Below are positions 19,449 to 59,034 of a stretch of 64,000 nt of DNA, in pieces. The position numbers and the translations under genes were made by a program. The stretch comes from Eubacteriales bacterium (GTDB lineage Bacteria > Bacillota > Clostridia > Oscillospirales > CAG-382), in the NCBI GenBank assembly GCA_045538555.1, contig JAZSRP010000049.1, positions 129,476 to 193,475 on the forward strand. Reading direction: 5' to 3'. Positions within the stretch are counted from its first letter, which is position 1. Every line of letters begins with the position of its first letter. A model generated the notes under the pieces. That model did no database searches, was not told the DNA's origin, and saw only the letters and a list, made by a program, of their open reading frames with translations.

Positions 19449-19525
19449 CTGGGTGTGGCGCAGTTTGGTAGCGCGCTACCTTGGGGTGGTAGAGGCCGCT
19501 GGTTCAAGTCCAGTCACTCAGACCA
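19449..19525 (+). tRNA. tRNA-Pro (anticodon GGG)
   Basis: Hand-folded 77-nt cloverleaf. Acceptor CTGGGTG/CACTCAG (one G-U), D arm GCGC/GCGC, anticodon arm CTACC-TTGGGGT-GGTAG, T arm GCTGG-TTCAAGT-CCAGT, encoded CCA. Confidence 0.85.
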
Positions 19526-33572: not shown

Positions 33573-36152
33573 TCATCCCATTTTTTTGATGTTTTTGTCC
33601 ATCCAGGCGTACCTCATGTTGATCCAATCGGTCAGATAGTCAAGCTGCCCTTGGTAGGTGTCGATTTTTGCTGTCACTTTGTTTTCAAACTGAATCTTTT
33701 TTCCAAGCACCTTCCATCGTTCAAAATTTTGTTCAGCGGAGGGAGCAACTCGCACCTCCGCAGCGCTTACCGTTTCCAGTGCAACAGAGAGCATTTTTTC
33801 TCCGACCTGTTCCCATCTTTCCTTGAGACAGCTGATAAAATAAGGGTCTTTCAGCAGATAGTCCATGATGTTTTCGGGGATGTACATGTTGTATGAGTCC
33901 GTTTCGGAATTGCCGAGGCAGATCCATTCCTCGTAGTCAGAGGAATCCAGCCCCATGTTGCCAAAAGCGTAGTCAAAATCCCACGGGAGACAAAAAAACA
34001 GCTTTCCGTCAGATTTTTTCAACAGATAATCGCTTCTTCTGAAAATTCCGTCAAGATTGTAAGAAAATTCGTACAGCAAAAACCAGTCCACCAGCGAGGG
34101 CACGTCCAACAGCTCATGATAATCCCCGCCGCTCACAACGGCATCTTCCACTGCCTTTACGTAACCGCTGACATAATCAAACTGTTCTTTTGTCAGTACG
34201 TCTGAATCGGGGTTTTTTATTTCCACAAATCGAAACAGCTTGTGAGAAAACACGTTTCCGCCAAAATCCGTCTTTGTGTACTCGCCGCCTATCTCCAGCA
34301 AAAAGTCGGTGTCCGTCTCAGTGCTGTCCTCAACACCCGGCACTCTGCCCCGGTTTATCTCCGGCTGTTCACTGAGCTGATAGACACCATGATACTCTCC
34401 GTTGATATAGAGATCCACCATGTATGCAGATGGTATAAATACCATGTTGTCCAAAACATTGCCTACAGAATAGGCGATCTGATTTCTGATCAGTGAGCGG
34501 TCAACGTGGTTGGCAACCAGCACCCACCTTTTTGCTTTTTCAAGCCCAAAGAGGGATGTGCCTGATTCGAATTTGATTTTGTACGGCTTTTTTTCAAGTT
34601 TCCAGGAGGAGTGTCCTCTGCCCTGAATCCCGATGACGGAGTCATATATGCTGTCAAAATCAAAGTCCTCTCCGTAGTCAATGGAGAAATAAGCGTTGAT
34701 GTATCTGTCCTTTGTGTTAATTTTTGCACCGTTTTCAGTTTCGATTCTGATGATAGGAAGCCGAAAATCTTTTTTGTAAAATTCGATTTTATAACCTCTT
34801 GTACTGCCTGCCGTATCGGTGATCACAAAGTAATATTCTCCGTTGTCACGGATGATCTGGGATTTTGCTTCCTGTGTAAAAGATGCATCAATTTTCACCT
34901 TGTCCGGGTCCACATTATCAGTGAGCTCAAGCTCTGCATACAAGACGTTGCCTCTTGCAAAGGTGTCAAAAGTTCTTCCGGTGACTGAGTCGATCAGCAC
35001 GGCGGATTCAACGTCTGCGCTTCCGCTGCCTCCCATATATCTGTGAACAAAAACTCCGTTGTAGCTCCGAACCGAAAAATTGGTTTCAACTGTCTCAAAC
35101 TCGGGTTTTTCGTCTCCCGTGCAAAAAACGTCACAGGAAGGGGAGTCAAATATCAGCTTTTCACCCAAGGGGATGGCGTTTTTGGAGTAATCAACGGTGA
35201 TTTTTCCCTGCTCACTGGTGTCAAAAACAATATTGTCGGTTATTTTGACATTGCCCGAAAAAGTGACCGAAAGGGGACGGGCAACAGAAAAACCGCTTAG
35301 GCAAAAATCACCGCTCACTGTCAGCTTTTTTATATGGTCATCGATCCGAAGTGCCCCAAACCCGTCCGTAAGATATGCGATGTCATCGGCAGAATCCGCA
35401 AAAACTTCCTCTGTATCGATCTTTCTTCCGCACAGGGATCTTGCATGAACAAAAAACGGCCTTTCTTCCAAAAAGTTTCCAAAGGGAACGTCAACAAAAA
35501 TATCCCAACATGGTGTTTTGCATATCAGATTATCACATGTAAAATCGGAGGCAGAATTGTTTTTTATCTCCATTTTGCCTTCGTTGCGGCTTTCAAACAA
35601 CAGATCACCGTCAACGATCACCATACCTGTCTCCCAACAAAAGGGATGGTTGATCACAAGATCGCATGGATACTCAAACGGATCCGGAGTGTGCAGAGTA
35701 AGGTTTGTGTCAGCTGCAAGAGCCAGTCCGTGCTCAAATCCATATCTTCCTCCCGCAAAAAAGTCGGTTTTTTCTTCTTCGGATAGTGAGAGAGATACGA
35801 GATAATCTCCTGCTTTCAGCTCCCCAAGATCGATATTGCCTTTTCCGTTTTCAATGACGGTGTTACCTTGAAAAACAATTCCGTCTTGTCCCTCCAAGAG
35901 AACAAAGACAAAATAACTTGTGTCCTTTTTTGCTTTTATTTCAAGTGTTCCGCCGCCGGTGGCAGACAGGTTTGGGTTGTGACCGCTGTCGGAGCAAAAC
36001 ACGATCTGATCCTGTCCTGTTTTATATGGCTTGAAAACCACGGACATTCCTGTGACTTTTTGGCTGTTTATCAAAAAAAACAGTGATGCCGTAATTAAGA
36101 CTGTTATTAAAACTGATGTTAGCACCAAAGAGGTTTTTATTTTTCGCTTCAT
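33573..36152 (-). CDS. CotH family kinase-like protein with N-terminal signal anchor and beta-rich extension
   Basis: 859 aa. N-terminal TM segment (SLVLTSVLITVLITASLFFL). The C-terminal ~380 aa carry CotH-like motifs (KPYKIKF, WVLVANHVDRSLIRN, PWDFDYAFG). Confidence 0.78.
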   Translation of the reverse strand: MKRKIKTSLVLTSVLITVLITASLFFLINSQKVTGMSVVFKPYKTGQDQIVFCSDSGHNPNLSATGGGTLEIKAKKDTSYFVFVLLEGQDGIVFQGNTVIENGKGNIDLGELKAGDYLVSLSLSEEEKTDFFAGGRYGFEHGLALAADTNLTLHTPDPFEYPCDLVINHPFCWETGMVIVDGDLLFESRNEGKMEIKNNSASDFTCDNLICKTPCWDIFVDVPFGNFLEERPFFVHARSLCGRKIDTEEVFADSADDIAYLTDGFGALRIDDHIKKLTVSGDFCLSGFSVARPLSVTFSGNVKITDNIVFDTSEQGKITVDYSKNAIPLGEKLIFDSPSCDVFCTGDEKPEFETVETNFSVRSYNGVFVHRYMGGSGSADVESAVLIDSVTGRTFDTFARGNVLYAELELTDNVDPDKVKIDASFTQEAKSQIIRDNGEYYFVITDTAGSTRGYKIEFYKKDFRLPIIRIETENGAKINTKDRYINAYFSIDYGEDFDFDSIYDSVIGIQGRGHSSWKLEKKPYKIKFESGTSLFGLEKAKRWVLVANHVDRSLIRNQIAYSVGNVLDNMVFIPSAYMVDLYINGEYHGVYQLSEQPEINRGRVPGVEDSTETDTDFLLEIGGEYTKTDFGGNVFSHKLFRFVEIKNPDSDVLTKEQFDYVSGYVKAVEDAVVSGGDYHELLDVPSLVDWFLLYEFSYNLDGIFRRSDYLLKKSDGKLFFCLPWDFDYAFGNMGLDSSDYEEWICLGNSETDSYNMYIPENIMDYLLKDPYFISCLKERWEQVGEKMLSVALETVSAAEVRVAPSAEQNFERWKVLGKKIQFENKVTAKIDTYQGQLDYLTDWINMRYAWMDKNIKKMG

Positions 36153-36262: not shown

Positions 36263-37264
36263 TCATTCTTTTGTGGTGGGGGAGAGCGCTTGGCAGATCT
36301 GCTCCAAAACCTTGCCCTCCGATGCAAAAATATTTTGATATTTGTCCAAAAACATCTCGTATCCGTACGGAAATTCCGCACTGTCAAGCCGCACTGTGAT
36401 GGGGTGCAGATCTCTGCGCCTGATTGCTCCGTTTATCTCGTCCTCCACACGCTCGGATGCAGCGGAATGCTCGGACGAAAAGAGCAAAAAGTTTTTGCAT
36501 CCTTTTATTCTTTCGCCCAGCATAATGAGCCAGTTGTTTCCTTTGTGGATCCCCTCATCGTACCAGACTCTGTATCCTTCTCTCTGCAGTGCTGAGAGAT
36601 ATGGAATCACCTTTTTGTCGTCCTTGTGGGAGTAGCTGACAAAAACGTAGTCAAGAGTACCTGTGTAAGGAAGATCCACGTACAGACGGTTGTTGAGCCG
36701 CTTTTGCAGCTCCTCCGCTTCCTTGATGATAAGGTCAAACTGGCTGTAAAGAGCGTCAAACCCAAATTCTCCGCCTTCGCTATATATAACAGTTTTGTCA
36801 AAAACATTCATGTTTGCAAGAAACGTGCTTCTCAGCATGGCTCCTTTTTTCAGACGTTTATTTACCTGAATTTCGTCTTTTACGTATTTGCGTGTCATTG
36901 TTTCAAGACTTGTGCTGTCAATGTACATATATATGGGCACCACGTATTCGCCAAAGGAATCCACAATCTCCCGCACAAAATCCAGACTGTCTGGGGACAT
37001 GGTGATAAGTGCGTTTGACCTGCCTCTCACCGCATCAAGGATCTGGGATTTGTAAAAACCCGTTTTTCCGCCGTGGATGGAATAAACAAAATCGCATTGC
37101 ATCACGGTTTTTTCGTCATGGTTTTTGTAGGTGTCATAGTGATACGACAGAGAATCCTCCGGGAGATAATTGTATTTTTGAATCACAGAGTAACCTTTGT
37201 TGGAAAAATACTCTCTTGATTTCTTTGCAACCTCAAGGGTTCCGCCCACCAAAACTATCAGCAT
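36263..37264 (-). CDS. TIR domain protein with degenerate guanylate-kinase-like N-terminal domain
   Basis: The C-terminal TIR (approx 36338-36652) has DYVFVSYSHKDD..., GYRVWYDEG, FLLFSS, SERVEDEI. The start is set to the ATG at 37264 (GAGG RBS 9 nt upstream) because an extended -10 (TGGTATGAT) abuts the track start at 37297. Confidence 0.8.
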   Translation of the reverse strand: MLIVLVGGTLEVAKKSREYFSNKGYSVIQKYNYLPEDSLSYHYDTYKNHDEKTVMQCDFVYSIHGGKTGFYKSQILDAVRGRSNALITMSPDSLDFVREIVDSFGEYVVPIYMYIDSTSLETMTRKYVKDEIQVNKRLKKGAMLRSTFLANMNVFDKTVIYSEGGEFGFDALYSQFDLIIKEAEELQKRLNNRLYVDLPYTGTLDYVFVSYSHKDDKKVIPYLSALQREGYRVWYDEGIHKGNNWLIMLGERIKGCKNFLLFSSEHSAASERVEDEINGAIRRRDLHPITVRLDSAEFPYGYEMFLDKYQNIFASEGKVLEQICQALSPTTKE

Positions 37265-37297
37265 ATCAAAAAACCTCGCAAATTTTATGATAAACAT

Positions 37298-37342: not shown

Positions 37343-37371
37343 TTGACGAAAACATAAAATGAGTGTATAAT
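37343..37371 (+). promoter_or_regulatory. Promoter of the STAND gene
   Basis: TTGACG (37343-37348), 17 nt, TATAAT (37366-37371). It sits back-to-back with the TIR promoter, with the -35 boxes 16 bp apart. Confidence 0.55.
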
Positions 37372-37409: not shown

Positions 37410-40400
37410 ATGAATAATCCCGAGAATCAAAAGTACAACGGAATACGAATGTTTATATCCTCTACCTTTTCGGATATGACCTCTGAACGCCAGCATTTCA
37501 ACGATATAATCGTACCAAAGCTGAGGGCCCTTTGCCGTGACAAGGGAGTTTCGTTTTTTTCTGTGGATCTGCGCTGGGGTGTAACAGAAGAGGATATCGA
37601 AAACGACCGCCTTGTGTCTCTGTGCCTTGAGGAGGTAGACAGGTGCAGACCGTTCTTTTTGGGCATAATCGGCAATCGTTACGGATCACGAATGACACAG
37701 GTGTCTCCTGCGCTTGCGGAGCAATATCCCTGGCTTGCAGACAGTCTCGGTGCCAGCTACACCGAGCTTGAGATACTGTACAATCTGTCCAAAAACGACG
37801 GTCACAAAAATTCACTGTTTCTTTTCAAAAATTGCACTGAGCCCCCCTCTGCTGAGGATACACATAGCATTGCACAGCTCAAAGAAAAAATACTGAAAAC
37901 CGCCAAGGATGAAGTGGCGGAGTACAGTGAGATCTCCGAGTTTGAGTATATTATAGTTTCCCGTTTTTCGACTTGGCTTGATGAGATTTATGGTGATACG
38001 GACGTTCATCTTGAGCGAGAAAAGCTCTTTTCACACAGCATTTCGCTTCATTTTGACTGCAACGAAAAAGAGGTAAAAAGCATTTCATCGTGTATACGTA
38101 TGACCGATTCCACACTGATTCTGCACGGAAACGGGCCTCTGGGAAAAACGTCCCTGCTCAACAGAGTTGCTGCGGAGTTCCCCGCAAGAATCGTCATCAA
38201 CTGTCGTGCGGATGAGTCCAACACGGAGTGGCATTACGTTGCGTTTTCCATTGTAAAAAAACTGATGGAGCATCCGGACGTCACAGTTTATGATTATTCC
38301 TGGTTTGAAGAAAACAGCCATCTTTGGGACAGCGGCCGCATTTTGACAGACATTGAGGAGGAGGCGCTGAATCAAAATTTTGTAAATCTGATCAAAGAGC
38401 TTCACTGCCGGCAAGAGACACTGCTTGTCATCAATGATATTGAATATATCCACGGAAGCCGTACAAAATACCTTCAGTGGATACCCCCTGTCACGGGAAA
38501 TAAATTCCGTATTGTGTGTTCTTCCAACGATGCCGATATTATAAACAGTGCGGAGATCATGGGGTGGCAGTGTCTTGAGATGCGGCAAATGGAAATATCT
38601 TCAGCCCGCCATATTTTGGAATCGGAGCTGAAGAAGTACGGAAAAAACTCAAAAGACGTTTTGCCGCTGCTGGATTCTGACCTTGCCGGATATCCGGGAT
38701 ATCTCATCTCGGCAATCGATTTTCTCAACTGCTTCGGCAGCTTTGATACGGTAGGTGAGATATCAAAAAAGCTGTCGGAGTGCAGTACTTTTACGGAGTA
38801 TTATGACCTGGTTTTTGATTACATAAAAAGTACGCACGGGAAAGAATTTTTTGATCTTTTGCTTACTGTTTTGGCGGCGGTTTCAATCTCGGTGCTTCCG
38901 TTGGAGGAATCGGGCAGATTCTTTGTGCTGACTGACCTGACAAGCTGCGACAAGTTCCAATGGACAGCCGTCAGCCGTTTGATGAGCGCTTTGCGCTTTG
39001 AAACAATCGGCGGAGTTCTTCCCACGGCGTTGCGAGATCATGTCCTGCAGGTGGTGCTGCAATCAAAAAAAGATGAGATCAACATTTCATTGGGCAGATA
39101 CTTTTTGTCTGTTTCCGACTACAAAAAGATCGGAACCGATGCCCGTGATCTGAGACTTCAAAAAAATGCATTGATCCATTTTGTTGCCGGCAGAGATGAA
39201 AATTCGGTTTCGGCAGTGCTCGGAAATACCGATGTGATGATGAACCTTTGCGCTTATGAAAAGGATGCTGTAAGAGCGGCTCTGGCATTTTTGATGCTTG
39301 AAACCAACCGCAACGTATCAAAAATTATTGCTGACAACATGGAGTTCCTTGATCGAAACCATTCAGGGCTTCCCGTTCAGGCAAAGGACGCTTTTTGCAA
39401 TCTCGACGCCATATATATGGACCTTTCATTGCAAAAAGAAATTGATCGTATCAATCAAGTCATTGACTCCGCAGCTCAAAACAAATTTGTTCCTTTCCTG
39501 GAAATCGAAAGAGTTGGAAAAGAGATGTTTTTGGGCGAGGAGATAACCATCGCTGCGGAAGAGAATGGCACGGAATATGCTCTCAATCTGTTGGAAAAAT
39601 ATAGGTCAATGGAGGATGACACTCCCCTCAACCGAGCCATGTTTGCAAACCTTAGGTCCGAGCTGCTATGGAAACACAGACAGGTGGGATCAATGGCGGA
39701 TTTTGAAGATTCTATCCGTCTTTCCACTGAGGCGGGAAGCATCAGTTTTATATTGTTTGCATACAAACGAAAGATAGATTTGCTTATACGTGAAAAGGAG
39801 TATGGGGAGGCAGTCAATCTTTCTTCAAAATGTGAAAAATGGTCTCGCGATCTGGGCTACGTGTTTTTTACTCTCTCGTTCTCAAACAGCATTGCCGTGT
39901 GTCTTTACCGCACAGGAAATATCGATGAATCGTTGGAAATATCCAAAAAATACTACGATATTTGCAAAAAGCACGGGATCACCCAACATGCGTTTACGTT
40001 TCAGCGGGGTATTGCCAACGCCCTCAATATCGGAGGAAAATACAAAGAGTGCATCAAGTTTTGCGAGGATTTTTTGAAAAACAAAAACATTGAATTCTAT
40101 CAGGAAGTGGCAATCGTTGATGTTCTCAAAGGTGCGTATTGCAACGACAACAGACCGGAAAAAGCTATACCGCTGTTGACAAAAATGGTTGAGGATCCAC
40201 GTCTTGACGGATCAAAGAGAATGCTGTTTTCGTGTACACTGGCGAGTATTTTGATCGCTCGGCAGGGCTTTTCAAAAAAAGCAGAGGTGCTTCTCAACGA
40301 TACGTTTTCAATTGCCCAAAACAATCGCAACTTCAGGTTGATACATTTTTTGCTCAATCGTCTTTACAAGGATTTGTGGATATCAAAAGATGGGATTCGG

Positions 40401-41597
40401 TTTTGGAACCGTTGGAAAACCACGCCGGGATACAACGAGTTTCTCACAGACAGCGCAAGCTTTGATGACGAGCAGTTTTCCAACGGAGCTGATTTTTTTG
40501 CAGTAAACAATCTCTCGGTTGCAAAAGCAAATGTTCAAAAGCTGAAAAGCGATTATCGTATTGCATTTGAACGAAAAAAATATGCAGAATCCGCCGAGAT
40601 TGCATACCGTCTTGCTATTCTGACGGCAGAAAACGAGAGCAAAGAGTCGATAGGTATGATAGTGGATGCTTTGGAATCTGCCCGACTGAGCAATGATCCA
40701 AAAATGTTCCGAGAGTATTTGACCTATGGAATAAAGCGTCTCATGCACTGCGGAAAACCAACGGATGAGGAATTGGCAAATCTCCTTGACCTCTACCTTG
40801 ATCCCCAATGCAAGGCATTTTTGAAAAACTGGGAAAAAGCAGGTGAGTACCTGGAGGACATAGACAGTGAGCCGATGAACTGCCTTGTGAGTATAATAAC
40901 GGCAAAAGACGTTCCAAACGAGCTCAAACTTATCTGCCTTGCGGATCTGTCGACGCTTATCATTGGCTGCCTTTCTCCGGCTGAACTGAATGATTTGATC
41001 GATATCGCCTCGCAAGAGGGTTTGGAATCAAATTATCTAAACACGCTATTTGCTTCCAAAACGGTACAGGTTTTTGAGAAACATGATGCTGTGTACGGAG
41101 AGGATTCAGTAAACATAATGAAAAAAACGGAAAAAAGGTTTTTGTCATTCATTTCGTCATCGGGGCGGTTTGAAATTGTGGGAGGATTCGGCAGACAGGA
41201 AAATCCCATTGATCCGAACATGGTATCGGAGAGCTTTACCGTTGAGCCAAAATGCGATTACGATCACCTCGGCCGTGTTCTTGCCACTGTTGGTGTTGCG
41301 GAATCTGCATCAAATGAAAAAATCGATCTTTGGTGCATCACTGACATCGTATTTTCCACGTTGACTCCCGAGCTTATGCAACAGGTTTGGGAGCTGATCG
41401 GCAACACTCCTCTGCCTCAGTATCAGGGGAAAGATTTTTGCCATGTCAATATCCAGCCCAACGAGATGCTCAGATGCATGGGAATGATATCTCTGAACTC
41501 AAAATTGGAGCTTCCCATGGTGTATAGGCTGTATTCTGACCTTGCAATCGATCTGATCCAAAAAGCAGATGCACTGGCAAAAAATCTTGATGGCTGA
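37410..41597 (+). CDS. DUF4062 (TIR-like) / STAND P-loop NTPase / helical (TPR-like) repeat protein, 1395 aa
   Basis: aa 12-92 (37443-37685) FISSTFSDM..ERQ...VDLRWGVTEED...CLEEVDRCRPFFLGIIGNRYGS matches the DUF4062 signature. Walker A is GNGPLGKTS (38127-38153) and Walker B is LLVINDIE (38421-38444). More than 700 aa of helical repeats follow, then a ~230-aa non-repeat C-terminus. Confidence 0.85.
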   Translation: MNNPENQKYNGIRMFISSTFSDMTSERQHFNDIIVPKLRALCRDKGVSFFSVDLRWGVTEEDIENDRLVSLCLEEVDRCRPFFLGIIGNRYGSRMTQVSPALAEQYPWLADSLGASYTELEILYNLSKNDGHKNSLFLFKNCTEPPSAEDTHSIAQLKEKILKTAKDEVAEYSEISEFEYIIVSRFSTWLDEIYGDTDVHLEREKLFSHSISLHFDCNEKEVKSISSCIRMTDSTLILHGNGPLGKTSLLNRVAAEFPARIVINCRADESNTEWHYVAFSIVKKLMEHPDVTVYDYSWFEENSHLWDSGRILTDIEEEALNQNFVNLIKELHCRQETLLVINDIEYIHGSRTKYLQWIPPVTGNKFRIVCSSNDADIINSAEIMGWQCLEMRQMEISSARHILESELKKYGKNSKDVLPLLDSDLAGYPGYLISAIDFLNCFGSFDTVGEISKKLSECSTFTEYYDLVFDYIKSTHGKEFFDLLLTVLAAVSISVLPLEESGRFFVLTDLTSCDKFQWTAVSRLMSALRFETIGGVLPTALRDHVLQVVLQSKKDEINISLGRYFLSVSDYKKIGTDARDLRLQKNALIHFVAGRDENSVSAVLGNTDVMMNLCAYEKDAVRAALAFLMLETNRNVSKIIADNMEFLDRNHSGLPVQAKDAFCNLDAIYMDLSLQKEIDRINQVIDSAAQNKFVPFLEIERVGKEMFLGEEITIAAEENGTEYALNLLEKYRSMEDDTPLNRAMFANLRSELLWKHRQVGSMADFEDSIRLSTEAGSISFILFAYKRKIDLLIREKEYGEAVNLSSKCEKWSRDLGYVFFTLSFSNSIAVCLYRTGNIDESLEISKKYYDICKKHGITQHAFTFQRGIANALNIGGKYKECIKFCEDFLKNKNIEFYQEVAIVDVLKGAYCNDNRPEKAIPLLTKMVEDPRLDGSKRMLFSCTLASILIARQGFSKKAEVLLNDTFSIAQNNRNFRLIHFLLNRLYKDLWISKDGIRFWNRWKTTPGYNEFLTDSASFDDEQFSNGADFFAVNNLSVAKANVQKLKSDYRIAFERKKYAESAEIAYRLAILTAENESKESIGMIVDALESARLSNDPKMFREYLTYGIKRLMHCGKPTDEELANLLDLYLDPQCKAFLKNWEKAGEYLEDIDSEPMNCLVSIITAKDVPNELKLICLADLSTLIIGCLSPAELNDLIDIASQEGLESNYLNTLFASKTVQVFEKHDAVYGEDSVNIMKKTEKRFLSFISSSGRFEIVGGFGRQENPIDPNMVSESFTVEPKCDYDHLGRVLATVGVAESASNEKIDLWCITDIVFSTLTPELMQQVWELIGNTPLPQYQGKDFCHVNIQPNEMLRCMGMISLNSKLELPMVYRLYSDLAIDLIQKADALAKNLDG

Positions 41598-41607
41598 AAA
41601 CCTTCAA

Positions 41608-41632
41608 CGAGAAAAAGTCTCGCGGTTTTATT
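41608..41632 (+). terminator. Weak candidate terminator after the STAND gene
   Basis: CGAGA-aaaag-TCTCG hairpin followed by cggTTTTaTT. The stem is short, so confidence is low. Confidence 0.3.
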
Positions 41633-41854
41633 GGTGCCTTTTAAGGCGTGGAAATAAAAAATCCCCACCGATCGGCTTCGTGTTCTTAGCGGAAAATCGG
41701 ATTAATTTTCTGGCAGGTCAATATGGTCTATCGGCTTTCTTGTGTATGTGGAGCCGGGCATCTGACCGGTTATCGAATCCGGTGGACAGCCGGGTGCTCT
41801 GCTTGCCACAGACAGAGAAAGCGAGTTCAAATGTTCTCCACACCAAAGGCGCCC

Positions 41855-41900
41855 TTGTATAAAGGGCGCTGTCAAAAATCTATTTGATTTTTGACTGAGA
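41855..41900. repeat. Left arm of an inverted repeat pair bracketing the XRE cassette
   Basis: Its reverse complement reads TCTCAGTCA-18nt-GACAGCGCCCTTTATACAA. The right arm at 43118-43157 has the same two blocks (9 and 19 nt, identical) with a 12-nt spacer. The left arm also folds into two hairpins of its own. Confidence 0.65.
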
Positions 41901-42007
41901 GGTTGTCGTTGAACAATATATGTGTATATGCTAGAATATTGGCAAACAGTTTGTGCAACTTGAATTTCGCTCCACCATACCCAAAATGGGGGTGGCTTAA
42001 CAGTCCA

Positions 42008-42036
42008 TTGACGGTTTACCTTGATTACCGTAGAAT
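42008..42036 (+). promoter_or_regulatory. Promoter of the XRE-membrane regulator (a second similar box lies at 41909-41937)
   Basis: TTGACG, 17 nt, TAGAAT. An upstream duplicate is TTGAAC, 17 nt, TAGAAT. Confidence 0.5.
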
Positions 42037-42057
42037 GATGGACGGAGGTAAACAGAT

Positions 42058-43065
42058 ATGACTGATAAAAAAGCTTTCGGCGCGTTTATAAAAATTAAAC
42101 GAACGGAAAAAAACTATTCACAAAAAGATTTGGCAGAAATGTTGTTTGTTACCGAAGGTGCAGTGAGCAAATGGGAGCGTGGGGTATCCTATCCCGACAT
42201 TACCTTGATTACCGATATTTGCCGTGTTCTTGACATAAGCGAACATGAATTGATTACTGCCTCAATCGACACAGAAACAAGGAAGATGAAGCACGAAGCA
42301 CGTAAATTCCGTGTGATTCGTGGCACATGGTTTTGGGTTCCGACAATATCCTATGCTGTTGCACTTGTAACCTGTTTCATTTGTAATCTTGCAGTAAACC
42401 ACACGCTTTCCTGGTTCTTTATTGTGTTGGCCGCATTGATTTGTGCATATACATTTGTACCAACAGTGATTTGTTTTTTTGAGTCGAAGAAATTTCTTGC
42501 ATTTACTGTTTCAACATACCTGTCTATTTGTTTGCTTTTGTTCACTTGTGCAGTATATACGAATGGTTTTTCGTGGTTCTTAACTGCCTGCATAGGCATC
42601 TTGATGGGATATGTGCTTTTGTTTGTGCCTGTCTTGTTATCAAAAACAAATTATTCTCGCTATAAATTCATCATTTCCGTTGCGGTCACACTTGTGTTGA
42701 CAGTTTTGATGATGATACACATTCGTATCCGGCAGCCGTTTATGCTCGGTAACGCAATTCTAATGGCTGTATACGGCTTTGCACCTGTAATTGCTTGTGC
42801 GGTGATATGTGCCTTCCCTTTTAACGAATTTCTTAAAACAGGAATCTGTACCGCCATCAGTGGAATCACGCTTTATTACACAAATCATGTGGCGACAGCT
42901 TTGTTTGGCCCATCTTCCGGCAGTTCCTATCAGGTAGATTTCCAAAACTGGGAACAATGCTTAAGCGGAAATGTTCAACTCATAGTGTTTTTATCATTCT
43001 TGCTTGTTAGTGCCGTCTTTTTTGTAATGGGATTCTTTAGAGTTATACGTAGCAGTAAACGATAA
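42058..43065 (+). CDS. XRE-family HTH regulator fused to a polytopic membrane domain
   Basis: N-terminal YSQKDLAEMLFVTEGAVSKWERG HTH, then ~7 hydrophobic helices. RBS GGAGG. Lower GC than the flanks. Confidence 0.8.
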   Translation: MTDKKAFGAFIKIKRTEKNYSQKDLAEMLFVTEGAVSKWERGVSYPDITLITDICRVLDISEHELITASIDTETRKMKHEARKFRVIRGTWFWVPTISYAVALVTCFICNLAVNHTLSWFFIVLAALICAYTFVPTVICFFESKKFLAFTVSTYLSICLLLFTCAVYTNGFSWFLTACIGILMGYVLLFVPVLLSKTNYSRYKFIISVAVTLVLTVLMMIHIRIRQPFMLGNAILMAVYGFAPVIACAVICAFPFNEFLKTGICTAISGITLYYTNHVATALFGPSSGSSYQVDFQNWEQCLSGNVQLIVFLSFLLVSAVFFVMGFFRVIRSSKR

Positions 43066-46646: not shown

Positions 46647-46686
46647 AAAAAGAAAAAACGGATCCCGCAAAAAAGTGAGGGATCCG
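46647..46686 (-). terminator. Terminator of rnpB
   Basis: On the minus strand CGGATCCC-tcactttttt-gc-GGGATCCG hairpin (46659-46686) followed by a U-run (plus-strand A-run 46647-46658). Confidence 0.7.
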
Positions 46687-47032
46687 GACACGCTCCTGTA
46701 AGCCGAGTTCTGTCGTGAACAATCATCTATCTTGGATCTGCGTCGCCGCAGACCTCTATGCCACCTCCCCGAGAGCTGCCGAGCAGGCATTGACGCTCTC
46801 TCCGCGGTGTTGCTCCGGATAGGGTTTACATGGCCGCACGGTCTCCCGTACGCCGGTGAGCTCTTACCTCGCCTTTCCATCCTTACCAAGCAAAGCTTGG
46901 CGGTTTATTTCTGTTGCACTTGCCCTGAAGTCGCCTTCGGCAGACGTTATCTGTTATCCTGCTCTGTGGAGCTCGGACTTTCCTCACGGCACGGGATTTC
47001 TCCATGGTGCCGCGCGATTGTTCGGAACGGTC
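46686..47032 (-). ncRNA. rnpB: RNase P RNA (bacterial, type A-like)
   Basis: The minus strand contains the universal GAGGAAAGTCCGAGCTCC (plus-strand complement at 46968-46985), GGTAAGAGCTCACCGG, GTAAACCC and ACAGAACTCGGCTTACAG (P4 3' strand). The ends are approximate (+/-10 nt). Confidence 0.85.
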
Positions 47033-47039
47033 AAAAATT

Positions 47040-51618: not shown

Positions 51619-52869
51619 ATGTTTTCACCCGAATTACTGAAAAGAGCAGGGGAGTGCGAGCGCTCCCTTGCGGAAATATTTTCAAAAATTGACGAAACAG
51701 CATTTAAAAACACCCAAAAGGTGATGGAGATTTTTGCCAATAACCACCTCTCCGATCGACATTTTGCGCCCTCCTGCGGTTATGGATACAACGATGACGG
51801 ACGTGACTTGTGCGATGTTCTTTTTGCACAGGCGCTTGGATGCGAGAGCGGCTTTGCCCGCTCGGGAATCATTTCGGGCACCCATGCTCTTGCAATTGCA
51901 CTGTACGGGTTGCTCCGTCCCGGTGATACGCTTTTGTCTGTCAGCGGAAAACCCTATGACACCCTGGATTCAGTCATCGGATTTGAAAATCGAGGAGAGG
52001 GAAGTCTGGCGGAATACGGAGTAAAATACCACGGAATAGATCTTGTGGACAACAAGACCATTGATCTGGCAGCCGTCCGCAGCTATCTCTCGGCACACAA
52101 TGAAGTAAAAGTCGTTTTTGTGCAGCGCTCAAAGGGTTATGGTGACCGCAGAACGCTTACGGTCGGTGAGATAAATCAGCTTTTTGACCTCGTGCGTGAG
52201 TTTGCCGGCGTGTATCTGGTGGTTGACAACTGCTACGGTGTGTTTACAGAGGCATCCGAGCCCAAAGGCGATCTTCTTGTGGGATCACTCATAAAAAATG
52301 CCGGGGGAGGTATTGCCGAGACCGGCGGATATATCGTTGGCACCAAAAGAGCTGTGGAGCTGGCGGGATACCGTCTCACAGTTCCCGGCATCGGGCTTGA
52401 GGCAGGGTGCTCACTGGGTACTACCAAGTCAATGATAAAAGGGCTTTTCTTTGCGCCTCACACCACAGCCCAGGCGCTAAAAACCGCACATTTTGCCGCC
52501 GCAATGCTTGAAAGCTACGGATTCCGCTGTGCGCCCGCATCTACAGAGATGCGCAGTGATATTATTCAGACCGTGTATCTCGGAAATGCAAAAAACGTTC
52601 TTGGATTTTGCAAAGGTATTCAAAAAGGATCACCTGTTGACAGTTACGTTGTTCCGGAGGGATGGGAAATGCCCGGCTACAACGACCCTGTTGTGATGGC
52701 AGCAGGTGCTTTTACTCAGGGCAGTTCTATTGAGTTGTCTGCCGATGCTCCTTTGAGAGAACCGTATATTGTCTATCTGCAGGGCGGACTTACCTACGAA
52801 AGCGGAAAATATGGTATTCTTACAGCTATCAAAACAATGCTTGAAGAAATGGAGGAAAAACAGTCATGA
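51619..52869 (+). CDS. YnbB-like PLP-dependent enzyme (Met_gamma_lyase / aluminium-resistance family)
   Basis: 416 aa; GYGYNDDGRD...ISGTHAL...QRSKGY resembles the family as I recall it. Confidence 0.78.
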   Translation: MFSPELLKRAGECERSLAEIFSKIDETAFKNTQKVMEIFANNHLSDRHFAPSCGYGYNDDGRDLCDVLFAQALGCESGFARSGIISGTHALAIALYGLLRPGDTLLSVSGKPYDTLDSVIGFENRGEGSLAEYGVKYHGIDLVDNKTIDLAAVRSYLSAHNEVKVVFVQRSKGYGDRRTLTVGEINQLFDLVREFAGVYLVVDNCYGVFTEASEPKGDLLVGSLIKNAGGGIAETGGYIVGTKRAVELAGYRLTVPGIGLEAGCSLGTTKSMIKGLFFAPHTTAQALKTAHFAAAMLESYGFRCAPASTEMRSDIIQTVYLGNAKNVLGFCKGIQKGSPVDSYVVPEGWEMPGYNDPVVMAAGAFTQGSSIELSADAPLREPYIVYLQGGLTYESGKYGILTAIKTMLEEMEEKQS

Positions 52870-54713
52870 AACGTTTTTTGTCAATCCTTGTGTTGATTTT
52901 TCTTGCTTTTTCTCTTGTGTCTTGTAAAAATGAAAAAGATGGAAACAACAGCCAATCCCAACCCGAGACCGACTATGTTGCCGAAGCGCAAAAGCTGCTG
53001 AATGACGGAAAAATCAAGGAAGCATATCAGTATCTCTACACAAACCGAAAAAATGAAAAAGCGGCGGAGATGCTTGAGGATTTTCTTGTGATACATCGTC
53101 ATACCGACCAAAAAACTTATTCACGTTACAACGCAAAGAGGGTTACCATTTACAATGAGCATGGAGATATGATCCGTGAGGATGTCACATTTCCTTTTCA
53201 GAGCTATTACTCGCAGGACTTTGTCCGTGAGTATAGGATCGAATACGATTCAGATGGTAGAATGCTGAAAAGCACAGAGATAGTCAACGGCACGGAGGAG
53301 ACCGTAGAGGTTTATACCTACAACGAGCATGGGCTTGTCCATACTTTCCAAAACGGTTATAAAGTGGATACCTATACATACGATGCCGACGGAAACACAA
53401 TACTTATATTCTCCGATCACATCGACAGCCCTTATTCCGAGACAAAGGAGTTTACATACGATCTGGAGGGCAATCTGCTCAACGAGGTCTTTTCCTACGC
53501 AGGTGGCGGTGACGAGGGAGATATGAGCGGTATCTATTACGACGAGAGATATACCTATGATGCCGCCGGAAATATGATCCGCAAGCTCTATTTCTCCGAG
53601 AATAACGAGACTATCCGCGATACTGCCTATACTTACAATGAGCATGGTGACGTTCTGACCCAGACCGTAAAGACAACTCACACCTACGTGTATGATGGCA
53701 ACGAGAAAACCAATGAGTACGTTGTTGAAACCTCATATCAATACACCTATGATGATGAGGGCAGAGTGACAAAAAAGATCACCGAGAACCCCAATATTAC
53801 AAAAACAGAGGAATTTGTTTACAATCAGCAGGGCGACGTTGTAAATGAAACCTGCACCGATTCCACCGGTGTTATCTATATCAAAGAGTTTGAGTTTGTA
53901 TATTCGGACAGCGGTGAGATAACGCAGATCACAGAGGTGCAAAACAGTTATACGGAGCTGACCTTTGATGAGACGTTTGACGACCGAGGCAATATTACCG
54001 GTCAGCATTCAGTAACCGCCACAGACGACAGAAGCAACAGCACGGAGTATACATATGATGAAAAGGGAAGGGTAACAAAAAAAGTGCATACCGACCCTGA
54101 TGGTGAGATAAACACCTTTGAGTATGAGTATGATGACCGAAACAACGTAACAAAAAAGACTCAAAGGACAGAGTTGGGCAATGAGTTTGTCTATGAGTAC
54201 ACCTATGACGACCAAAACCGTGTTGTAAAAGAAGTCAAAAATTCTTACGGTTCAGTGACCGTCACCACAAATGAATACGATGAGCATGGCAATCTGACCA
54301 AAATTACGGAGAACCCCTCCGACGGAGAAAAAAAGGTGCGTGAGCATCGATATCAGTATGACGAGCGTGGCAATATATTGAAAAAAGAGTATATCAATGG
54401 CGGTGCCTTGGTTCAGACCACCGAATACGAGTACGATTCTGCGGACAGAGTGATCAAACGCACAAATTATTCTGCAGAAAACAAGATTATCGGCACTGTC
54501 ACCATTGAGTACGATGCGGACGGAAATACTCTTCGTGAGAAATGTGAAGCAGGGGAAGCAGGTGACTCGCTTACACCGTACGATTCGATCTATCGATATG
54601 ACGAGTTTGGAAACATGGTTTATCGGTATTATGCGTATCAGGATTCCCGATACGAATCTTGGTATTCTGATTTTTGTTATTTCTATCTACCCGGCAGAGT
54701 GGAGATCAAGTGA
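52866..54713 (+). CDS. YD-repeat lipoprotein
   Basis: Signal peptide with lipobox LVSC, then more than 15 degenerate repeats of the form YTYDxxGN / YEYDxxxN(V/L)TK. No recognisable C-terminal toxin or DPxGL motif. Confidence 0.75.
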   Translation: MKRFLSILVLIFLAFSLVSCKNEKDGNNSQSQPETDYVAEAQKLLNDGKIKEAYQYLYTNRKNEKAAEMLEDFLVIHRHTDQKTYSRYNAKRVTIYNEHGDMIREDVTFPFQSYYSQDFVREYRIEYDSDGRMLKSTEIVNGTEETVEVYTYNEHGLVHTFQNGYKVDTYTYDADGNTILIFSDHIDSPYSETKEFTYDLEGNLLNEVFSYAGGGDEGDMSGIYYDERYTYDAAGNMIRKLYFSENNETIRDTAYTYNEHGDVLTQTVKTTHTYVYDGNEKTNEYVVETSYQYTYDDEGRVTKKITENPNITKTEEFVYNQQGDVVNETCTDSTGVIYIKEFEFVYSDSGEITQITEVQNSYTELTFDETFDDRGNITGQHSVTATDDRSNSTEYTYDEKGRVTKKVHTDPDGEINTFEYEYDDRNNVTKKTQRTELGNEFVYEYTYDDQNRVVKEVKNSYGSVTVTTNEYDEHGNLTKITENPSDGEKKVREHRYQYDERGNILKKEYINGGALVQTTEYEYDSADRVIKRTNYSAENKIIGTVTIEYDADGNTLREKCEAGEAGDSLTPYDSIYRYDEFGNMVYRYYAYQDSRYESWYSDFCYFYLPGRVEIK

Positions 54714-58958: not shown

Positions 58959-59034
58959 CGGGGTGTGGCTCAGTTGGTAGAGCGGGTGGTTTGGGACCAT
59001 CAGGCCGCAGGTTCAAGTCCTGTCACTCCGACCA
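58959..59034 (+). tRNA. tRNA-Pro (anticodon TGG)
   Basis: Hand-folded 76-nt cloverleaf. Acceptor CGGGGTG/CACTCCG, D arm GCTC/GAGC, anticodon arm GGTGG-TTTGGGA-CCATC, T arm GCAGG-TTCAAGT-CCTGT, encoded CCA. Confidence 0.88.

Follow-up and report, generated by a model that had tools for sequence, protein, structure and literature searches.

Does a gene that joins a TIR-like module to a STAND NTPase and a long helical tail encode an immune sensor complete in one protein, one half of a pair with the TIR gene beside it, or a regulator with no part in immunity? The question is raised by a stretch of 64,000 nucleotides from a Eubacteriales bacterium (assembly GCA_045538555.1, contig JAZSRP010000049.1, positions 129,476 to 193,475 of the forward strand; the whole stretch is called the window here). 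At 37410..41597 on the plus strand it carries a complete STAND open reading frame (ORF) of 1395 aa, which combines a DUF4062/NIR domain, a STAND NTPase, a helical and TPR-like region and an orphan C-terminal domain. We consider it likely, by analogy with characterised systems, that the product is an Avs-like (bacterial NLR-like) anti-phage sensor working as a single protein, with an N-terminal DUF4062/NIR domain that would act as a TIR-like NADase effector. What is seen in the window and in its relatives is the domain architecture, conserved catalytic and P-loop residues, a STAND fold, an orphan C-terminus and no conserved partner gene.

The reading frame is single and uninterrupted, and its product is identical to a 1395-aa STAND protein present in NCBI (P0001), where it is encoded on a contig of 212,916 bp. 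P0002-P0012, eleven homologues that are full-length or nearly so, are 35-39% identical to the window protein. A larger sister family of about 40 clusters (P0014-P0053, 1450-1700 aa) was found in metagenome-assembled genomes (MAGs) of Ruminococcus and Lachnospiraceae, where its members are annotated only as 'DUF4062 domain-containing protein'. The sister family is collinear with the window protein from aa 1 to ~1240, that is, through the NIR domain, NTPase, winged helix, TPR and second helical region, with NTPase profile E-values of 1e-42 to 1e-56 and an overall identity of ~24-32%. Because an identical NCBI protein, 11 homologues and a sister family of ~40 clusters exist, the gene is real and conserved, and the single-gene span given by a first-pass annotation of the window is retained.

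Concerning the N-terminal part, the Pfam family DUF4062 (PF13271) matches aa 13-122 with an E-value of 1.7e-11 and 44.6 bits (gathering score 24.7), and it also matches 11/11 relatives. The family profile hits human TEP1 in the TIR-like NADase domain that has been crystallised (PDB 11gz_A, E 4.6e-23), and by homology to this solved structure the N-terminal domain is predicted to have a TIR-like (flavodoxin-like) fold. The first-pass annotation had recognised DUF4062 from the letters and taken it to be possibly TIR-like; profile search detects the domain above threshold, and the TEP1 match, together with three 2026 preprints reporting structure and biochemistry, agrees with that fold. The extent proposed for it (37443-37685, followed by a linker of ~150 aa) has to be revised. 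Homology to other DUF4062 proteins reaches a median of aa 194 and the DUF4062 domains solved or defined in publications are 189-219 aa long, so that the predicted effector domain spans ~aa 10-195 (37437..37994, plus strand) and the supposed linker is the remainder of the TIR-like domain. The label 'eukaryote-style' also turned out to be misleading, since DUF4062 is reported in ~8.7% of prokaryotic genomes.

The predicted catalytic glutamate is E121 (codon 37770..37772, plus strand), in the motif S-Y-T-E-L-E121-I. It aligns with the second Glu of the TEP1 sequence 'SVTEME' in 11gz_A, which is E1008 in the sole chain numbering that puts R908, R954 and R976 on arginines; alignment and numbering together therefore point to E121, whose published equivalents are E1008 in TEP1, E108 in PsAvs2 and E97 in KpSwz. 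Among the 120 homologues listed, E121 is invariant (120/120) and E119 is conserved in 112. R90, the equivalent of TEP1 R976, is invariant in the family, and at R67, the equivalent of R954, either R or Q is found.

The activity of such domains is described in recent work. Osinski et al. (10.64898/2026.05.01.722283) reported that DUF4062 is a TIR-like NADase and solved KpSwz, a Swarozyc protein, and the TEP1 domain; in KpSwz the portal triggers depletion of nicotinamide adenine dinucleotide (NAD+) and abortive infection, and the NADase activity of both KpSwz and TEP1 increases with assembly or concentration. Le Mouellic et al. (bioRxiv 10.64898/2026.09.04.749371) renamed DUF4062 as NIR and characterised PsAvs2, a DUF4062-STAND-TPR Avs2 protein of Pseudomonas chlororaphis, in which sensing of its trigger, the large terminase, leads to E108-dependent NAD+ depletion and defence. 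During infection ADP-ribose (ADPR) is raised, and the NARP1 NAD+ reconstitution pathway counteracts the defence (10.64898/2026.09.04.749371). The Evangelion family was described by Ibarra-Chavez et al. (10.64898/2026.06.25.731849). Hydrolysis of NAD+ to ADPR and nicotinamide by DUF4062 is known only for TEP1, KpSwz, PsAvs2, Vulcan and Vesta, the TEP1 domain giving these two products and no other ADPR derivatives, and all the bacterial DUF4062 proteins tested so far defend against phage.

The NIR domain is followed by a STAND P-loop NTPase core (38103..38594, plus strand; aa ~232-395). Its Walker A motif is GNGPLGKTS (aa 240-248, nt 38127-38153) and its Walker B motif is LLVINDIE (aa 338-345, nt 38421-38444), exactly at the coordinates first assigned to them; G240, G242, G245, K246 and T247 of Walker A and D343 of Walker B are invariant among homologues. 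We modelled aa 200-1395 with AlphaFold2 from an alignment of 43 sequences, with a mean predicted local distance difference test score (pLDDT) of 84.3 and a predicted template modelling score (pTM) of 0.67. The modelled NTPase core is five-stranded (aa 236-239, 259-264, 337-342, 366-371 and 387-390), and D343 comes immediately behind the strand of Walker B at aa 337-342; the chain is then all-helical over aa ~396-1250 and ends in an alpha/beta domain. Profiles do not assign the NTPase to NACHT, NB-ARC, Avs or another named family: Pfam AAA_16 matches the window protein weakly (aa 218-347, 22.3 bits, below gathering) and Pfam NACHT (PF05729) has no match in it. Across the relatives, AAA_16 matches 11/11, the NPHP3 N-terminal family 10/11 and NACHT 1/11 (E 0.067). 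More distant DUF4062 homologues are annotated as NACHT or NPHP3_N, suggesting that the window NTPase is related to NACHT but diverged. The NTPase is of STAND type, but a diverged one.

When the model was compared with the PDB by Foldseek, the top matches were PH0952, a STAND-TPR protein from Pyrococcus (6mfv_A, 3.7e-8), and Avs3 (8dgc_A, 1.1e-7), followed by Apaf-1 (1z6t, 3.2e-5), MalT (8bob, 1e-4), Avs4 (8dgf, 1.5e-4) and NRC1 (8bv0, 2e-4); ZAR1 (6j6i) was a further STAND match. The N-terminal ~400-530 residues of the model align to Apaf-1, MalT and the NB-ARC region of NRC1, and the aligned regions cover the nucleotide-binding domain (NBD), helical domain 1 (HD1) and winged-helix domain (WHD). 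The corresponding helical and winged-helix-like region of the window protein lies approximately at 38595..39026 (plus strand; aa ~396-539) and is modelled mostly as helices with short breaks. As modelled, the succession of NBD, helical and winged-helix parts resembles that of solved STAND proteins.

TPR-like alpha-helical repeats, which appear as regular helix pairs in the model, occupy 39027..40454 (plus strand; aa ~540-1015) and form a putative sensor scaffold. In this part, aa ~830-930 weakly match, by profile, consensus TPR proteins of the PDB, Pfam TPR_12 matches 5/11 relatives, and the Foldseek matches include the STAND-TPR protein 6mfv and the TPR of LGN. A loop of low confidence by pLDDT (aa 1016-1040) leads to a second modelled helical region (40515..41159, plus strand; aa ~1036-1250), which the larger sister family also has: of the 120 homologues listed, 44 are hit by a profile of aa 1020-1240, and 33 of these are sister-family proteins. 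With an effector at the N-terminal side of the NTPase and repeats at the C-terminal side, the protein has a tripartite NLR-like layout, and the model and the STAND matches agree with the NTPase, helical/winged-helix region and helical repeats that had been read from the translation.

The last part of the protein is an orphan alpha/beta domain specific to the clade (41169..41594, plus strand; aa ~1254-1395), delimited by the model and by profile search. Its ~145 aa are arranged as four strands, a helix, two strands and a long helix; modelled alone from 11 sequences (aa 1240-1395) it reaches a pLDDT of 90.7 and a pTM of 0.87, and the long model reproduces the same elements. The first-pass annotation had proposed a non-repeat C-terminal domain of ~230 aa beginning near the sequence SSSGRFEIVGG. 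Its existence and its start are upheld, with SSSGRFEIVGG starting at aa 1249 and the first strand of the domain at aa 1254, whereas its length is not, as only 147 aa separate the beginning of that sequence from the end of the protein.

A profile of the orphan domain searched against 1.84 billion representative proteins found 12 proteins, eleven belonging to the same family (full-length or fragments) and one being a spurious repeat protein. The domain is absent from the sister family, which beyond ~aa 1240 has ~400 aa of further TPRs in its place. In neither the PDB nor BFVD did Foldseek return a match to the domain at E<=1e-3. A function was sought in the structural neighbours and none was accepted: the nearest PDB entry is 3cxj (E 9e-3, TM ~0.4), with no significant match. 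Several type III secretion chaperones align at TM 0.4-0.5 with E>0.03, and the nearest BFVD match is gp493 of Bacillus phage G (E 4.5e-3). The modelled domain is faintly chaperone-like, a resemblance to be taken as a lead alone. The orphan domain is a plausible sensor or regulatory module, and ligand sensing, autoinhibition or dimerisation may be its role as alternatives. We would put forward only tentatively, and think rather unlikely, the stronger proposal that the clade is a previously undescribed NIR-STAND lineage in which the orphan domain, and not the TPR superhelix, carries out trigger recognition or autoinhibition. If that were true, the domain would be a new sensing module, probably for a new phage trigger, of an NLR-like NADase. 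The search of representative proteins also brought up P0193, whose 118 aa consist of the first ~64 aa of a P0007-like DUF4062 domain and, directly behind them, the last ~54 of the orphan domain; an assembly artefact or an internal deletion is the probable origin.

The window protein belongs to a small clade of roughly twelve protein clusters, every one of which derives from a gut or rumen-type metagenome. No relatives were found in GTDB representative genomes, JGI metagenome contigs and IMG/VR, searched with the family alignment and with two family-specific peptide patterns each. A plasmid collection gave two matches, confined to the DUF4062 domain, and a phage collection gave none. The loci used for comparison were drawn from short Logan and ENA contigs only. 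Among these, the seven loci of close homologues (L001-L007) differ in their neighbours, which include ketohexokinase, a ribose-phosphate pyrophosphokinase-type protein with Pribosyltran domains, ACT-domain, radical SAM and MatE genes, and they have no neighbour gene in common. Some relatives adjoin defence-type genes (WYL, CARF-nuclease, TIR). In particular, L001 (7237-9894, plus strand) and L006 (2-2481, plus strand) have genes for an AAA ATPase and a CARF-PD-(D/E)xK nuclease (Card1/Can2-like) immediately upstream of the STAND gene and in the same orientation, separated from it by 107 bp and 22 bp, respectively. The nuclease genes match the PADLOC model CARF4--CARF_PDDEXK at E 4.7e-30 and 3.4e-19, and WYL and NUDIX genes are also nearby in L001. 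The STAND proteins of this subclade (P0006, P0013) are 68% identical; the arrangement could be an operon, or an adjacency within a defence island.

In the window, the flanks consist of housekeeping genes (MetRS, TatD, GAPDH, PPDK, Mur ligase, RNase P RNA), the PPDK being 85-87% identical to that of MAGs of Oscillospiraceae, Christensenellaceae and Ruminococcus, which points to a gut-type Clostridia bacterium as host. The G+C content is slightly low between 36 and 44 kb (0.40-0.45), and the small island in which the STAND gene is located is variable and slightly poorer in G+C. Taken together, the patchy distribution, the varying neighbourhoods and the slightly low G+C fit a horizontally acquired defence gene. 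A promoter-like site (TTGACG, 17-nt spacer, TATAAT; 11/12 matches) lies at 37343..37371 on the plus strand, 39 nt 5' of the ATG and within the intergenic region common to the divergent TIR gene; it was called purely from a consensus pattern match. Just 3' of the stop codon, a pattern scan gives, as weak evidence, a terminator-like hairpin with a 5-bp stem and a T-rich tail, CGGTTTTATT (41608..41631, plus strand). Having its own promoter-like site and no conserved neighbour in L001-L007, the STAND gene has the character of a single-gene unit.

PsAvs2, Vulcan, Swarozyc and TEP1 serve as the analogues from which we infer NADase activity, activation by oligomerisation, a role in defence and the part of the protein that binds the trigger. 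In the uninfected cell the STAND protein would be monomeric or otherwise autoinhibited. The C-terminal sensor, consisting of the TPR-like superhelix, the second helical region and the orphan domain, would bind a phage-derived protein or another ligand, and this binding would permit nucleotide-dependent oligomerisation of the STAND NTPase. Clustered NIR domains would then turn into active NADases through E121, and the loss of NAD+ would arrest or kill the infected cell before phage release, as in abortive infection.

PsAvs2 is like the window protein in being encoded by a single gene and in its layout, an N-terminal DUF4062/NIR domain with the catalytic Glu, the STAND NTPase in the centre and helical repeats at the C-terminal side; the output expected by analogy would be the same, NAD+ converted to ADPR and nicotinamide with abortive infection. 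No PADLOC Avs model matches the window protein, so that it is not assigned to Avs2 here. PsAvs2 comes from a proteobacterial host, in contrast to the gut Clostridia of the window protein, and an orphan alpha/beta end of ~145 aa is undescribed for Avs2. Swarozyc, Evangelion and Vulcan are also single-gene fusions of sensor and NADase, sharing the effector domain and its catalytic Glu. However, they combine DUF4062 with an AUX or HEAT region, without a STAND NTPase, and become active by assembling directly on a phage protein, which for KpSwz is the portal, or via the AUX region, whereas the window protein has a switch of ~300 aa (NTPase, helical and winged-helix) inserted and is 3-5 times larger.

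The eukaryotic proteins TEP1, NWD1, NWD2 and NPHP3 likewise have a STAND NTPase that is immediately preceded by DUF4062 and followed by repeats. To TEP1 the window protein is linked by the profile match and the conserved equivalents of E1008, R976 and (as R or Q) R954, and to NPHP3 by the Pfam match in its relatives. It differs from them in having no NACHT match, TROVE or vWA, in having TPR-like repeats instead of WD40, and in being encoded by a bacterial gene within a variable chromosomal island. The sister family stands closest in its collinearity and is also found as a lone gene, for example between Tex and flavodoxin genes (P0048), and its difference lies in the C-terminal TPRs that it has instead of the orphan domain.

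Several observations weigh against the interpretation as an immune NADase. In the NTPase, the sensor-1 strand reads IVCSSND by eye, without the Arg of the usual hhhTSR/TTR motif, and an invariant Asn precedes the Walker B Asp, so that the nucleotide cycle may be atypical. In the NIR domain, the equivalent of TEP1 R908 is S21, at a variable position of the family, and in TEP1 the mutation of the active-site arginines R908 and R976 lowers activity. No PADLOC-DB v2 model, including Avs1-Avs5 and bNACHT, matches the 1395-aa protein at E<=0.01, and neither does any NCBIfam model; the protein is therefore not a recognised member of Avs1-5 or bNACHT. The first-pass annotation would have given up its view of the locus for a place in a characterised Avs or bNACHT clade with the same partner gene; the PADLOC models lend this no backing, and its premise of a shared partner falls away, as no partner is conserved. 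In purified form, human full-length NWD1, NWD2 and NPHP3, which are DUF4062-NACHT proteins, had no NADase activity in vitro, so that a conserved Glu is no guarantee of activity, and several of the homologous loci are flanked by housekeeping genes only.

These points could be accommodated if the gene encoded a non-immune signalling or regulatory STAND protein, whose DUF4062 module would serve for oligomerisation or as a scaffold, or would have a substrate different from NAD+; NWD1, NWD2 and NPHP3 may be examples of this. Besides the inactivity of these three proteins and the many loci with housekeeping neighbours only, such a role would suit the report that only ~20% of prokaryotic DUF4062 genes are near known defence genes or in predicted defence islands (two preprints), and the presence of MalT-type transcription regulators among the structural neighbours. 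However, the invariance of the catalytic Glu in the homologues listed and of R90 argues for a retained enzyme, and no DNA-binding or other output domain was found in the window protein by Pfam or in the AlphaFold2 model. Moreover, the sporadic distribution, the fast-diverging sensor end (orphan domain versus extra TPRs) and the varying neighbourhoods are typical of defence genes, and so far every bacterial DUF4062 protein that was tested has proved to be a phage defence protein. We regard a non-immune role as unlikely.

The window also contains a stand-alone TIR gene (36263..37297, minus strand), a 344-aa ORF with an N-terminal region of ~200 aa with no assigned family and a C-terminal TIR_2 match at aa 217-305 (E 3.5e-17); homologues and the NCBI copy suggest that its true start is M11, giving 333 aa. 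The first-pass annotation had seen in the two TIR-type modules of the locus a possible TIR-TIR recruitment. In such a two-gene system the oligomerised STAND sensor would recruit the free TIR protein, and NIR-TIR contacts would form a composite active site or signal. The two genes are indeed adjacent, ~110-145 bp apart, and both have TIR-type folds, the TIR protein has a plausible catalytic region by eye (S..S..S.RVEDEI), and TIR domains in general act via oligomeric interfaces. The genes are, however, divergently transcribed, and each has a signal of its own, the STAND gene a promoter-like site and the TIR gene a good terminator-like hairpin (36254-36233, pattern scan). At the loci of close STAND homologues an adjacent TIR gene was found in 0/7, the sole TIR sequence there being a fragment 2.7 kb downstream in L001, past the MatE gene, with 22% identity. 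The TIR family, in turn, counts ~50 clusters of full-length homologues (32-70% identity, ~330-346 aa, from Ruminococcaceae-type metagenomes), against 13 close STAND relatives, and in the five TIR-homologue loci L008-L012 the neighbourhoods are of four kinds, none of which contains a called STAND gene; the TIR gene occurs there as a lone gene. PsAvs2, Vulcan, Swarozyc and Evangelion, too, work without a TIR partner. The recruitment model is thus not sustained, and we consider a two-gene system very improbable; a cooperation of the STAND and TIR proteins that evolved at this locus would have nothing comparative in its favour. It seems best to regard the TIR gene as independent and possibly as a defence gene itself. 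PADLOC matches the TIR part alone, weakly and as ThsB-like, and the protein may be an undescribed single-gene TIR defence protein. Adjacent TIR-type genes in one genome are no evidence of a functional pair.

Some TIR domains produce cyclic ADPR-type signals, as in Thoeris. That the NIR domain makes a nucleotide second messenger activating a separate effector, rather than plainly depleting NAD+, is suggested by the AAA ATPase and CARF-nuclease genes upstream of the STAND gene in L001 and L006, but it has the slightest probability of all the readings considered, given that this adjacency occurs in one subclade only and is absent from the window and five other loci, that the TEP1 domain yields just ADPR and nicotinamide, that ADPR rises and NARP1 counteracts defence in the PsAvs2 case, and that AAA plus CARF-PD-(D/E)xK is itself a recognised CRISPR-associated module (PADLOC names), whose adjacency may reflect a defence island.

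The remaining features of the window surround this single-gene sensor candidate. The STAND gene is followed by an intergenic region of 460 bp (41598-42057), which contains a perfect 8-bp GC-rich hairpin at 41849-41869, GCGCCCTT...AAGGGCGC, and which gives no Rfam match at the gathering threshold. An ORF of 97 aa at 41569..41862 overlaps the STAND stop codon; it has no family match and was treated as probably non-coding. Beyond lies a gene at 42058-43065 (plus strand), with its own promoter-like site at 42008-42036, for a 335-aa protein with an N-terminal XRE-type helix-turn-helix (HTH_3, E 8.4e-12) and a C-terminal part of ~260 aa with no assigned family; it resembles RmrA and the N-termini of phage repressors in the helix-turn-helix alone. 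This gene was considered as a member of the system and discarded, tblastn having found no copy of it in the 7 STAND-homologue loci. On the other side, just downstream of the TIR gene and beyond its terminator-like hairpin, a minus-strand gene (33573-36152) encodes a protein of 859 aa, in which a CotH kinase domain (E 1.3e-42) forms the C-terminal part and the N-terminal ~500 aa have no assigned family; it is followed by a 238-aa protein with no family match and then by an Rce1-like CAAX protease. At a greater distance, a 615-aa protein with RHS repeats (E 1e-25; 52866-54713, plus strand) may be a fragment of a polymorphic toxin. An RNase P RNA of class A (46682-47033, minus strand, 269.5 bits) and two tRNA-Pro genes with anticodons GGG and TGG (19449-19525 and 58959-59034, both plus strand) indicate an ordinary chromosomal context.

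The DUF4062-STAND architecture is of an already known kind, and what is new is a member of it from a rare lineage of gut Clostridia. The only feature without precedent is the orphan C-terminal domain, which is the part worth experimental testing. The gene could be used, outside Proteobacteria, to ask whether the DUF4062-STAND arrangement of TEP1, NWD1, NWD2 and NPHP3 is activated by oligomerisation. If the interpretation as an anti-phage sensor is true, gut Clostridia would carry NIR-type, NLR-like immune sensors that are missed by PADLOC v2 and NCBIfam.

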